From NCBI GenBank assembly GCA_965223705.1, contig OZ245015.1, positions 4,478,234 through 4,542,233 on the forward strand: a stretch of DNA of 64,000 nucleotides. The letters are read 5' to 3'. The translations under genes and the position numbers were made by a program. The notes under the pieces were generated by a model. That model was given only the letters and a program-made list of their open reading frames with translations, did no database searches and was not told where the DNA came from. This stretch comes from Myxococcota bacterium. GTDB lineage: Bacteria; Myxococcota_A; UBA9160; UBA6930. Each line of letters starts with the position of its first letter. Position 1 is the stretch's first letter. Positions 60,260 through 64,000 of this stretch are shown in pieces.

Positions 60260-61411
60260 ATGAAGAAAAAGGTCCTCCTCGTCCATCACACCCTTCAGCC
60301 GCCGGGTGGGGGAGGCGCCGTCGCTGCGTGGACGGTGGAGGCGCTCCGGGACGACTTTGAGCTCACGGTCCTCACCTGGGGCGAAGTCGAGCTGGAGGCT
60401 ACGAATCGCATCTTCGGCACGAGCCTCCGGCGAGACGATTGCCGGTGGCATTCGGTCCACCCCGCCCTCGTGAGGGCGCTCGACGCGCTGCCGATTCCGC
60501 TCGCGCTGCTGACGATGCATATCGTCTTCCGGAGAGTGGCGGGGTTGCGCCGCGAAGAGCACTTCGACGCAATTGTCAGCACGATGAATGAGTGCGACGT
60601 CGGCACGAGAGCCATCCAGTATGTGCACTATCCCTGGGCTCGCTTTCCGCGCCCGGACTCCGATTATCGCTGGTACCACCTCGAGTCGGTCCTCCACGCT
60701 TATCGGTGGGGCTGTGCGAAGGTCTCGGGCTTTCGGGACGCGAACGTCCGAGACAACGTCACTCTCGTGAACTCCGACTGGACCGGAAAGGTCTTCGAGG
60801 AGCGCTATGGCGCCGCAGCGCTGACTGTCTATCCACCGGTACCCGGTGGTTTTCCCGACGTCCCCTTCGAGCGGCGCGACAACAGCTTTGTGTGCGTCGG
60901 GCGGATCGCCAGGGAAAAAGAACTCGAGAAACTGATCGAGATCCTGGCGGGTGTCCGAAAGCGCGGTCACGACATCGGCTTTCATATTGTCGGTCAGATC
61001 GGAGGGCGTGCCTACGCGAGGAAGATCCGGGCCGCCGCCGCGCCCCACGCGTCCTGGATCCGATTCCACCACGACGTTCCGAGAGACGAGATGACCTCGC
61101 TCATGGCGAACAGCCGCTACGGAATCCACGGGATGGTGGGGGAGCACTTTGGAATCGGCCCCGCCGAGCTACAACGCGCCGGCTGCATCACTTTCGTTCC
61201 GGACGAGGGTGGCCCGGTGGAAATCGTCGACCGCGACGAACGTGTGACCTACGGCTCGGTCGATGACGCCGTGGACAAGATCGATCGAATCCTCGGCGAC
61301 ACGGAAGTCCGGCATTCGGTGCTGCGCGACCTACAAAGGCGCAAAGACAATTTTTCCGAGAATCGCTTCATGGAAGAAATACGAAGCGTCGTCGACGCGT
61401 TCGTCCGGTGA
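60260..61411 (+). CDS. GT4 glycosyltransferase, ALG11-like
   Basis: GGGG, YVHYP, VNSDWT, VYPPV, EHFGI. Confidence 0.85.
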   Translation: MKKKVLLVHHTLQPPGGGGAVAAWTVEALRDDFELTVLTWGEVELEATNRIFGTSLRRDDCRWHSVHPALVRALDALPIPLALLTMHIVFRRVAGLRREEHFDAIVSTMNECDVGTRAIQYVHYPWARFPRPDSDYRWYHLESVLHAYRWGCAKVSGFRDANVRDNVTLVNSDWTGKVFEERYGAAALTVYPPVPGGFPDVPFERRDNSFVCVGRIAREKELEKLIEILAGVRKRGHDIGFHIVGQIGGRAYARKIRAAAAPHASWIRFHHDVPRDEMTSLMANSRYGIHGMVGEHFGIGPAELQRAGCITFVPDEGGPVEIVDRDERVTYGSVDDAVDKIDRILGDTEVRHSVLRDLQRRKDNFSENRFMEEIRSVVDAFVR

Positions 61412-61414
61412 CGC

Positions 61415-63295
61415 TCAGTGCAGCGAGTCGACCTCGGCGTCGTCGACGAGTCCGGCGATCTCGCGGAATCCCCGGTTCCGACCCGCGAGTTCCTCGAAGG
61501 TCCCGCTGTCGGCCACTTTCCCATCGCGAAGCAGGATAAGCCGCGTACACCGGCGGACTGTGCTCATCCGATGTGCCACGACCACGAGGGTCTTGTCGCC
61601 TCCCGCTTCTCGCAGCGCGTCGGAAACCGCTCGTTCCGTGGCTCCATCGAGGGCGGAGGTCGCCTCATCGAAGACGAGAACGTCCGGGTCGCGGTAGAGC
61701 GCACGGGCGATGGCGAGCCGTTGACGCTCGCCGCCCGAAAGGCGCACTCCGGATTCTCCGATCATCGTATCGAGACCGTCGATCAGACCTCCGACAAAGT
61801 CGGAAAGCGCAGCTTGCCGGAGCGCTTCCCAGACGCGAGGGTCGTCGGCTTCCCCCTCGTCCGAGCCGAGCGCGATGTTGCGTCGTATGGTGTCGTCGAT
61901 GAAGAACGCGTGTTGCGAGACGTACCCGATGCGCGACTGCCAGCGCGAGAGCACGCTTTGCAAATCCGCCGCGTCGACTCGGATCTGGCCCCGCGTCGGC
62001 GCGTGAAGCCCGAGGAGGAGGTCCAACAACGTCGATTTCCCCGCGCCCGAAGCTCCGACGATCCCGATGAATTCGCCTCGCCCGATGGTCACATCAATCC
62101 CCTGAAGGGCGTCGTCCGTGGCTCCGGGGTAGCGGTAGTCGACACCCTCGAAGCGCACCGCATCCTCGAAGCGAAACGCTGCCGGGGTCCGTTCCGACGC
62201 GCCGGAACCCGGACGCTCGAGTCGGGGTCCGGCGTGCCAATCGCTGTGAAGCTGATCGACGGCTGCCTCTCCGAAGCGACAATTGTTCAGGTGATAGACG
62301 ACGAGATGGAGCGAAGGGAGAAGACGCATCAGGGCGTAGGCCACCAGCCCGAGGAACGTCAAAAGCCGGCCGGTTTCGACCTCGAGGCGTGTGGCGAGAA
62401 CGATGACTGCGACAACACTGATCACGAAGAACGTTTCGACGGCCAGACGCGGGACGACGCGCAGAGAATCCGTCCGACGCTGTATGGAAGCGATCCGTGC
62501 CCGTGGACTCCGATACGATTCCACGAACTTCGGTTCGACGGCCAGGATCTTGATTTCCTTGATACCTCGAAACGACTCCTGCAATCGACGAAGAATCGTC
62601 GCGTTCATCTCGTGCACCGCCTGTCCCCAACCGGCGTAGCTCGACTGCATCGCGCGCAATAGCGGAATCGTTGCCGCGACCCCGAAAGCGCAGGCCCCGA
62701 GCGTCGCAGCCGGCGCCGCGGCGATCAGCACGGCGATGACGCCGACCACCACCAGGCACTCGGACAACGCTGCGGTCGCCGAGATGAGGACGCTGCGGGT
62801 GACCTGGTTGACCGAGTCGGAAGTGTTGCGGATGAGGAGCGCCGAATCGTGCGCGAGGTGAAAGGAGTAGGGAGCTCGCAGATAACGAGAGAGAATCCTC
62901 GTCGACATCGCGACAGCGGTGTTGTTCGCTACGCGATTCTGGGCGTAGTTCTCGACGAAGCGAAAGACATTCTTCAACAGAAAGAAGATCGCGACGATCA
63001 CCGCGTATGCGGACACGAAGCCCCGGTCCCCGACGTTGGGAGCGAGCGCTCGCAGCTCCCCGAGACCGCGCATGTTGGAGACGGCTTCGGGATCGCTCAT
63101 CAGGCCGATGAGACCGAAGATCAGCAATGCACCGACTCCCTCGAGTACGGCTGCGATCGCAGCGAGGGGCACGAGCGCGATCCAAGAACGTCGCTCAGCG
63201 TCTTGCAACAACGCAAAAGCGCGCATCGCGGTTCCGATCACCGGAAATCCGGCGACGGGGGAACGGGTCAATCCTACGCGCTGGCTCGAGCTCAT
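61415..63295 (-). CDS. ABC exporter, fused permease/ATPase (PglK/MsbA-like)
   Basis: GIKEIK, GASGAGKST, LSGGERQR, FDEATSALD, VAHR. Confidence 0.93.
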   Translation of the reverse strand: MSSSQRVGLTRSPVAGFPVIGTAMRAFALLQDAERRSWIALVPLAAIAAVLEGVGALLIFGLIGLMSDPEAVSNMRGLGELRALAPNVGDRGFVSAYAVIVAIFFLLKNVFRFVENYAQNRVANNTAVAMSTRILSRYLRAPYSFHLAHDSALLIRNTSDSVNQVTRSVLISATAALSECLVVVGVIAVLIAAAPAATLGACAFGVAATIPLLRAMQSSYAGWGQAVHEMNATILRRLQESFRGIKEIKILAVEPKFVESYRSPRARIASIQRRTDSLRVVPRLAVETFFVISVVAVIVLATRLEVETGRLLTFLGLVAYALMRLLPSLHLVVYHLNNCRFGEAAVDQLHSDWHAGPRLERPGSGASERTPAAFRFEDAVRFEGVDYRYPGATDDALQGIDVTIGRGEFIGIVGASGAGKSTLLDLLLGLHAPTRGQIRVDAADLQSVLSRWQSRIGYVSQHAFFIDDTIRRNIALGSDEGEADDPRVWEALRQAALSDFVGGLIDGLDTMIGESGVRLSGGERQRLAIARALYRDPDVLVFDEATSALDGATERAVSDALREAGGDKTLVVVAHRMSTVRRCTRLILLRDGKVADSGTFEELAGRNRGFREIAGLVDDAEVDSLH

Positions 63296-64000
63296 CGTTC
63301 CAACAGGACGGGCGCGGCGACGCGCTGCCAGGCGGTCGGCCAATCGGGGCCTCGATTCGCGGCGACGTTCATAGCGAGCTCCGCGAGGCGTCCTCCGGGC
63401 GGAGGGAAGCCCGCGAGCAGGCTCGTCAACTGTTCCGCCAAATCCTGCGCGTCTCGAAACAAAACACCTGTCCCTCCCGGATCGAGCTTCTCGCGCAAGC
63501 AAGGCCCGTAGTCGAGTGCGCAGGCCGGCAGCCCGGCGCCTCGCATATCCGCGAGCTTCATCGGCAAATCGACGCCCGAGGTCGACCGGTGCAGACACAC
63601 GCCGAGGTCGGCTGCCGCCAGACACGCCGGATACTCGGCCGCCGGAAGCCACGCCGGTTGCACATGGACCCGCTCGAGTTGCAGTGCCTCCGCCTCGCGC
63701 AGGAACGCGTCGAGCCCGGGACCTCTCCCCGTAGCGAGAATCACGATCGGCGGCAGAACGCCCGGTGGGGCGGCATCGAGAATTTTCGCGGCGTCGAGGA
63801 GCAGCGCGTGATCTTCGTCCAACGTGAAGCTCGAAGGACAGACCACGAGTGCGGGGTCGGAGCGAAAGGGCGTCGGGAGCTCGAGCGAATCGAAGAGCTT
63901 CGCTCGGGCCGCGAGGCGATCCTCCGGTGCCAGAGGCGCAAATCGGGAGTGAGGTTCGTCGTAGAGAACCCGTGCGCCATCGATACGGCGTTCGGTTGCG
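63292..64000 (-). CDS. ALG1-like (GT33) beta-mannosyltransferase, 5' end outside the window
   Basis: [47 protein letters not shown]..GLP; frame open to window edge. Confidence 0.85.
   Translation of the reverse strand, partial: [235 protein letters not shown]

Follow-up and report, generated by a model that had tools for sequence, protein, structure and literature searches.

Introduction

In the eukaryotic dolichol pathway (ALG7, ALG13/14, ALG1, ALG2, ALG11, RFT1, and STT3), a chitobiose-mannose root is built on a lipid pyrophosphate (PP) and the glycan is transferred en bloc by an STT3-family enzyme. The pgl system of Campylobacter (PglB, PglK) is a bacterial cluster of glycosyltransferases with an ATP-binding cassette (ABC) flippase and a single-subunit oligosaccharyltransferase (OST), and the crenarchaeal AglH/Agl24/AglB pathway, as outlined in PMC8993221, makes a chitobiose root with a fused MurG-fold enzyme that carries the histidine of a GGxGGH motif and uses an AglB-type OST. 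Bacterial ALG1 homologues were described by Xu et al. (10.1101/2025.10.15.682550), who report 204 of them, three out of five tested rescuing yeast alg1 and making Man-β1,4-GN2, and Kifer et al. (10.1101/2024.10.30.621208) likewise include them; as to where eukaryotic ALG1 came from, the origin was given as unknown in 2016 (PMC4973528) and as bacterial in 2025. The use that bacteria make of ALG1 was left open. Here we describe a five-gene cassette at the end of a 64,000-nucleotide stretch of a Myxococcota genome (assembly GCA_965223705.1, contig OZ245015.1, here C1, positions 4,478,234 to 4,542,233; the whole stretch is called the window), in which an ALG1 homologue of glycosyltransferase family 33 (GT33) stands with a MurG paralogue, a family 4 glycosyltransferase (GT4), an ABC exporter, and an OST. 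The cassette probably serves OST-dependent protein N-glycosylation, with a predicted Man-β1,4-GlcNAc-β1,4-GlcNAc root and a non-eukaryotic cap.

The locus shares with the dolichol pathway a true ALG1 homologue and, by prediction, the chitobiose-mannose root on a lipid pyrophosphate and an STT3-family enzyme that transfers the glycan en bloc. It differs in that a MurG-derived GT28 enzyme would stand for ALG13/14, a WecA-like enzyme for ALG7, and an ABC exporter for RFT1, and in that no ALG2 was found, the GT4 is without the ALG11_N domain, and the single-subunit OST appears nearest to DPANN AglB. The overall layout is that of the Campylobacter cluster, but the scores of 26 bits for the OST (PglB cut-off 1300) and 234 for the ABC protein (PglK cut-off 1000) fall short, and the glycosyltransferases are of the ALG1/MurG type, not PglA/J/H/I. 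The crenarchaeal pathway is set apart by ALG1, of which Xu et al. report no reliable example in Archaea (10.1101/2025.10.15.682550), and by its MurG-fold enzyme: Agl24 is ~16% identical to MurG (PMC8993221), whereas the cassette enzyme is 35% identical to the MurG of its own genome, which suggests a separate recruitment from MurG.

The cassette ALG1 belongs to the same enzyme family as the proteins of Xu et al., who also have ALG2 homologues, unlike this genome, in which ALG2 was not found. The main text of that paper is without gene context (operon, synteny, and STT3 each occur 0 times) and links bacterial ALG1 to no MurG paralogue, flippase, OST, or native pathway. No published description of this gene cluster was found in a search that was light on subscription journals and did not include the supplementary tables of Xu et al.; a term search of PMC7203096, over its first 300,000 characters, gave no match. 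Active bacterial ALG1 and ALG2 enzymes are already known (Xu 2025), whereas no printed account was found of a cassette that links ALG1 to a MurG paralogue, a candidate flippase, and an OST; such a cassette offers a testable native pathway for these enzymes. If the proposal is correct, a bacterial N-glycan carries the eukaryotic root, a peptidoglycan enzyme has been re-purposed for the ALG13/14 step, and single-subunit, bacterial-membrane enzymes become available for human-type glycan cores in E. coli. A wider idea, which we find rather doubtful but put forward tentatively, is that several bacterial phyla natively N-glycosylate with the eukaryotic Man-GlcNAc2 root by means of a mobile cassette (re-purposed MurG, ALG1, often ALG2, ABC flippase, and DPANN-related OST), and that this cassette lineage, not an archaeon, was the source of eukaryotic ALG1; bacterial ALG1 would then have been inside an N-glycosylation pathway before its uptake by eukaryotes.

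A five-gene cassette across a contig join

A sequence-only reading of the window had noted three genes at its end, and all the motifs that it quoted were located when the sequence was re-read: GGGG, YVHYP, NSDWT, VYPP, and EHFGI in the GT4, and [13 protein letters not shown] and [23 protein letters not shown] in the ALG1-like protein's C-terminal half. The translational coupling of ALG1 to the exporter, also claimed there, is seen in the ATGA overlap of the ALG1 stop with the ABC start, and the GT4 gene is indeed convergent with the ABC gene, their stops lying 3 nt apart. C1 ends at position 64000, and the cassette resumes at the start of the same contig (Table 1). Three public runs of one sample, which is possibly the source of the genome itself, each yielded a contig that spans both C1 ends, with exactly 4 bases between them. 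Across this gap the ALG1 frame amounts to 189 + 2 + 235 = 426 codons, counted from the first possible start, and no stop is possible within it, since the 4 bases and one spare base on each side make up two codons, one beginning with G and the other ending with C. A true frameshift in ALG1 was rejected on the bridging contigs, which reduce it to a 4-base assembly gap.

The OST start lies 6 nt downstream of the MurG paralogue stop, within the same insertion, and, with the gap allowed for, none of the five frames is broken. The five genes are one real, intact, inserted cassette. The sequence-only reading had looked to the DNA beyond position 64000 for further pathway enzymes: an OST and a stand-in for ALG13/14, the MurG paralogue, lie directly there, whereas ALG2 was not found in the genome. 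Pfam labels both glycosyltransferases only as GT1/GT4-type, and the eukaryote-type labels therefore needed separate tests. Among the cassette proteins, only ALG1 and the OST are assigned to their families by membership tests.

Table 1. Features of the cassette and of the contigs that bridge its two parts (window positions unless a contig or record is named)
Feature	Position	Strand	Remarks
tRNA-Ser(GGA)	60099..60188	-	Left cassette border; ARAGORN
GT4 glycosyltransferase, 383 aa from ATG	60260..61411	+	PF00534; GT-B model; predicted prokaryotic ALG2/ALG11-related group
ABC half-transporter, PglK/MsbA/HepA-like, 626 aa	61415..63295	-	Candidate flippase
ALG1/GT33 homologue, C-terminal 235 codons	63292..64000 (frame 63999-63292)	-	β-1,4-mannosyltransferase family
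ALG1, N-terminal 189 codons	C1:2-568, outside window	-	Beyond 4-base gap
MurG paralogue (GT28)	C1:604-1764, locus L001	+	Head-to-head with ALG1; PF03033 + PF04101
STT3/AglB-type OST, 869 aa	C1:1771-4380, locus L001	+	PF02516 + PF21436
tRNA-Ser(GCT)	C1:4340-4430, locus L001	-	Right cassette border
Bridging contig X1	Record positions 4373-8210 and 39-4368		Match the two C1 ends; 4 bases between
Bridging contig X2	Record positions 1-3858 and 3863-6793		Match the two C1 ends; 4 bases between
Bridging contig X4	Record positions 3180-7017 and 1-3175		Match the two C1 ends; 4 bases between

The ALG1 homologue

The two halves of the protein both match 21 out of 21 eukaryotic ALG1 sequences tested (31–44% identity, E 3e-33 to 3e-47), a resemblance that is therefore beyond chance, and the source names of close homologues are β-1,4-mannosyltransferase or GT33. 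In yeast Alg1 the donor and acceptor sites include D48, Q136, H356, S358, M366, K367, and Y383 (10.1101/2023.12.27.573458). The His/Ser/Met/Lys/Tyr donor-site set is present here with a spacing identical to that of yeast Alg1, together with the invariant Asp and Gln; the residues were mapped via spacing and invariant columns, yeast Alg1 itself lying outside the alignment. S354 is replaced by Cys, as it is in 16 of the 18 eukaryotes, and K112 by Arg. In a quick IQ-TREE phylogeny of 73 rows, the 18 eukaryotic matches that were used fall on one side (SH-like approximate likelihood-ratio support 100), and this ALG1 stands among diverse bacteria, without a well-supported sister. The tree is unrooted and its eukaryotic sequences were all retrieved with the L005 protein, so that it gives no direction and the closeness of L005 to eukaryotes is biased. 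A sequence search of the PDB with ALG1 gave no match. The ALG1/GT33 assignment of the sequence-only reading holds on the matches, the key residues, the tree, and the homologue names, and transfer from GDP-mannose (GDP-Man) is predicted.

The MurG paralogue and the predicted root of the glycan

MurG adds GlcNAc in β-1,4 linkage to a lipid-PP-linked GlcNAc derivative (lipid I), and a paralogue acting on lipid-PP-GlcNAc would therefore yield the substrate of ALG1. The cassette protein, in which PF03033 and PF04101 are found, scores 227.5 against TIGR01133, below the cut-off of 250.25. Among NCBIfam models, MurG (E 2e-67) ranks well ahead of PssE (E 2e-4), and the protein is thus at most a functional analogue of ALG13/14. 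A canonical murG is found elsewhere in the genome, ~3 kb from a mraY-like match, and is the protein to which the paralogue is 35% identical; two MurG copies are also found in three other genomes (G051, G338, and G340). In a tree in which Opitutaceae and the order of this genome are also represented, 11 cassette MurG proteins are split from six others (dcw-type) with support of 96/95. That the cassette gene is the peptidoglycan murG was rejected on account of its sub-cut-off TIGR01133 score, the second murG beside the mraY-like gene, and the separate clade. The GGxGGH loop keeps its catalytic His, a residue that both Agl24 and MurG require (PMC8993221). In all 13 cases the cassette MurG gene lies upstream of ALG1 and is read from the other strand.

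N-glycosylation by the OST might also start from a root unlike that of eukaryotes, if the MurG paralogue or ALG1 used another acceptor or donor, for example with a bacterial amino sugar first. We consider this unlikely, although it is the strongest competitor to the proposed root: the initiating enzyme is encoded outside the cassette here, some cassettes are without a MurG paralogue, their make-up varies (13 combinations in 22 loci, partly owing to short contigs), and the Arg at yeast K112 would suit a changed substrate. The other ALG1 site residues are, however, common to eukaryotes, bacterial ALG1 is reported to act on GlcNAc2-PP-lipid in vitro (10.1101/2025.10.15.682550), and the head-to-head arrangement of the MurG paralogue with ALG1 is constant (13/13).

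The oligosaccharyltransferase

The OST is the sole PF02516 match in the genome. The catalytic motif positions DxD, D-x-D, T-V-x-E, WWDYG, and DGG are present, and the DK motif is partly kept, by eye, as a Lys without the Asp. The protein belongs to the STT3/AglB/PglB type, and transfer to Asn is predicted. A search of 1.84 billion representatives yielded 771 matches at E<=1e-30. In a FastTree phylogeny of 62 rows, the nearest outside clade, of 24 rows, holds all three named proteins (20 looked up), and these are all from Woesearchaeota or Nanoarchaeota. A kinship with DPANN AglB is likely rather than proven, because most of the tree rows lack an organism name. One relative of the OST, P0462, has a C-terminal FKBP/trigger-factor-like domain.

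The GT4 and the ALG11 question

The sequence-only reading called the GT4 ALG11-like and placed it in a lipid-linked oligomannose pathway resembling that of eukaryotes, in which ALG11 adds mannoses 4 and 5. The model of the protein has a GT-B fold (predicted local distance difference test score, pLDDT, 96), and a structure search gave, among the matches listed, generic GT4 folds only (best BshA, Z 31.3, root mean squared deviation 3.7, 340 aligned residues) and no ALG2 or ALG11 entry. The family is large in bacteria, with 1,097 matches among 8,000 candidates scored, and the Atlas listing gives bacterial clusters and then archaeal GT4 clusters. The short motifs presumably side with ALG11 rather than ALG2; none of the searches returned a eukaryotic ALG11 sequence. 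For the ALG11_N domain, PF15924, the genome gave no match at E<=1 (one candidate scored) and the 66 family members none at E<=0.1. The two ALG2 motifs, a G-I-G-G-A-E-R loop and E-H-F-G-I-V-P-L-E in Xu et al. (10.1101/2025.10.15.682550), are replaced by PPGGGGAV and EHFGIGPAE, and the Val of the second is found in one of the 66 members. With a bacterial ALG2 query, ALG2 was not found in this genome, which is 95% complete (best E 1e-10), nor in three other genomes with ALG1 cassettes (G017, G051, and G339).

An ALG11 that completes a Man5-type oligomannose precursor, destined for PEP-CTERM proteins, is accordingly very improbable here. Its merits are the presumed likeness of the short motifs to ALG11, an Opitutaceae cassette (L002) in which ALG1, ALG2, and a member of this GT4 family follow the order of the pathway, and a 95% complete assembly from which ALG2 could be missing. 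Set against these are the results for PF15924 and ALG2, the five of six other loci with this GT4 family that are without ALG2 in the DNA examined, the lack of a sequon excess in PEP-CTERM-like proteins (see below), and the report that yeast Alg11 neither accepts nor extends Man1GlcNAc2 (PMC6472349). An oligomannose (Man5) product is unlikely because there is no ALG11_N, no ALG2 was found, and yeast Alg11 does not take Man1GlcNAc2; what stands of the earlier proposal is a predicted lipid-linked pathway that resembles the eukaryotic one in ALG1, the OST, and a stand-in for ALG13/14. For the same reasons, and in the absence of the ALG2 motifs, the GT4 is read as a predicted capping enzyme from the prokaryotic pool of ALG2/ALG11-related glycosyltransferases described by Lombard (PMC4973528), a placement that serves as a lead.

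Proposed pathway

A WecA-like enzyme, whose gene lies outside the cassette, would make polyprenyl-PP-GlcNAc, to which the MurG paralogue may add a β-1,4 GlcNAc to give chitobiose, as ALG13/14 does. ALG1 would then add a β-1,4 mannose from GDP-Man, a step shown for other bacterial ALG1 enzymes. In the most tentative step, the GT4 would put at least one α-linked sugar, most likely mannose, on the first mannose; it is placed directly after ALG1 because no ALG2 was found. The lipid-linked glycan would be flipped by the ABC transporter, and the AglB-type OST, as its intact motifs suggest, would transfer it to Asn-X-Ser/Thr of exported proteins.

The ABC protein is a candidate flippase from its context. 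It scores 287 bits against MsbA, 268 against HepA, and 234 against PglK, all below the cut-offs, and PglK structures match its residues 30-596 (E 7e-59). As to precursors, the genome encodes ManC-like, PMM/PGM-like, and WecA-like proteins. An exosortase/exopolysaccharide (EPS) locus near C1:1.06 Mb holds WecA-like, ManC-like, and Gmd genes; the WecA-like gene, at C1:1,061,178, is 40% identical to the WecA of a cassette.

Recurrence at other bacterial ALG1 loci

The recurrence of the cassette was followed in 86 ALG1 loci, made up of 80 metagenome matches (out of 509 confirmed, those most like L003), four titled genome records, and two relatives. At least one cassette partner was present at 22 of them, the counts being MurG-like 13, ABC 13, OST 10, ALG2 8, this GT4 family 6, and WecA-like 5; a weak ALG2 match at L052 (E 1e-12) was dropped from the ALG2 count. 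Where partner-bearing loci reach at least 7 kb, 8 of 11 include an OST. Two Opitutaceae records and a Bacteroidota record serve as named examples, and among the loci with this GT4 family only L002 has ALG2. In the Opitutaceae cassettes (L002:763-5471 and L004:5978-14776), ALG1, ALG2, and, in L002, the GT4 family stand in pathway order; their OST is TIGR04154-like, with a degenerate WWDYG in L004. L003:661-1467, 4 kb upstream of a WecA-OST-ALG1-ABC cassette, encodes an exported protein that is rich in Thr and Ala and ends in a sorting-like C-terminal tail; this protein weakly matches a haloarchaeal S-layer glycoprotein model (E 5e-4) and is a possible substrate.

Several points weigh against the proposed pathway. 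No cassette gene was present in the DNA examined at 64 of the 86 ALG1 loci (23 of the 34 that reach at least 7 kb), so a bacterial ALG1 does not always mean the cassette pathway, and two of the five bacterial enzymes tested by Xu et al. were inactive (10.1101/2025.10.15.682550). The cassettes use two distinct OST types, the second TIGR04154-like, and the G051 cassette has a Wzy_C/O-antigen-ligase-like gene in the OST position (L014:12230-13498), its STT3 match being sub-cut-off only. G017 and G339 have cassettes, yet only one MurG was found in each. The ABC protein falls below the model cut-offs for MsbA, HepA, and PglK (NF050066, 233.6 against 1000), and the WecA-like gene is linked to the cassette by likeness only, since it sits in a separate exosortase/EPS locus. 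Finally, sequons are at or below expectation in the PEP-CTERM-like, exported, membrane, and cytoplasmic classes, and no protein passes a Bonferroni correction, in a test that used home-made gene calls and crude protein classes; such counts are compatible with an active as well as an inactive OST.

The PEP-CTERM proteins had been suggested as possible targets by the sequence-only reading. About 30 PEP-CTERM-like proteins, and an exosortase, do exist in the genome, but sequons are not enriched in them: 34 were observed in 31 PEP-CTERM-like proteins, where 39.8 were expected. The largest excess, 11 against 3.4 expected and not significant after correction, belongs to the protein at C1:2566130-2568547, which we take to resemble LptD.

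The lipid-linked glycan might instead feed a surface polysaccharide, glycolipid synthesis, or O-linked ligation, with the OST a passenger or serving another donor. The ligase-like gene of the G051 cassette, the majority of ALG1 loci that are without a nearby OST, and the flat sequon counts would all suit such a use, which we nevertheless regard as improbable: the OST follows the MurG paralogue stop by 6 nt in the same insertion, it has no PF02516 competitor in the genome, and two kinds of OST recur beside ALG1, at 10 loci. Protein N-glycosylation remains the probable function.

Many of the stand-alone ALG1 loci (L028-L096) have neighbours that we take for purine catabolism genes (xanthine dehydrogenase, allantoinase, allantoicase, and uricase-like). 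Of the 12 stand-alone loci included in the tree, ten belong to a single tight clade; at L044, an ALG2 is convergent with an ALG1 of that clade.

Insertion site and spread among relatives

The five genes span ~8,155 bp between tRNA-Ser(GCT) and tRNA-Ser(GGA). In three relatives the same two tRNA genes are spaced 65, 51, and 393 bp, and in a fourth they lie 61 bp apart in the opposite order; the fifth relative compared is fragmented. The reading frame of the OST extends into tRNA-Ser(GCT) for 41 nt, on the antisense strand (L001:4340-4380), and ends ~14 residues beyond the stop of two of four aligned homologues, as if the native stop had been lost at the insertion point.

Strong ALG1 matches were found in two of 60 relatives (G017 and G051) and in none of 300 genomes sampled from the phylum. 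The GT4 family was found in the same two relatives, with a profile that contained the G051 protein and probably that of G017, and this OST type in none of the 60; as those genomes are incomplete, the missing genes are to be read as not found rather than absent. Five weak ALG1 matches from relatives, with E values of 2e-10 to 3e-4, were taken to be other GT4s and left out, and the ALG1 profile had no match in G050, G003, and G020; the neighbourhoods in G034 and G050 were read by eye only. No ALG1 or GT4-family locus was found on viral contigs, and no ALG1 on plasmids; among RNA data, none was listed as a carrier.

This patchy spread, the OST frame that runs on into the tRNA, and the finding of no sigma-70-type promoter between the divergent ALG1 and MurG paralogue genes could describe a recently acquired island that is silent or decaying. 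Such a state has very little probability in our estimate, given the five intact frames, the kept catalytic motifs, and a GC content at third codon positions (GC3) of 0.74-0.77, which is inside the range of the genome. The GC profile has no step at the cassette.

Adjoining the tRNA cluster, window positions 44462-59845 hold what we take, by eye, to be about seven universal-stress-protein-like genes, along with presumed Hsp20-like, hemerythrin-like, and CRP-like genes, two paralogous CxxCH proteins, a PAS kinase, a sigma-54 regulator, and a CBS protein. If these labels are right, the block resembles an oxygen or stress island.

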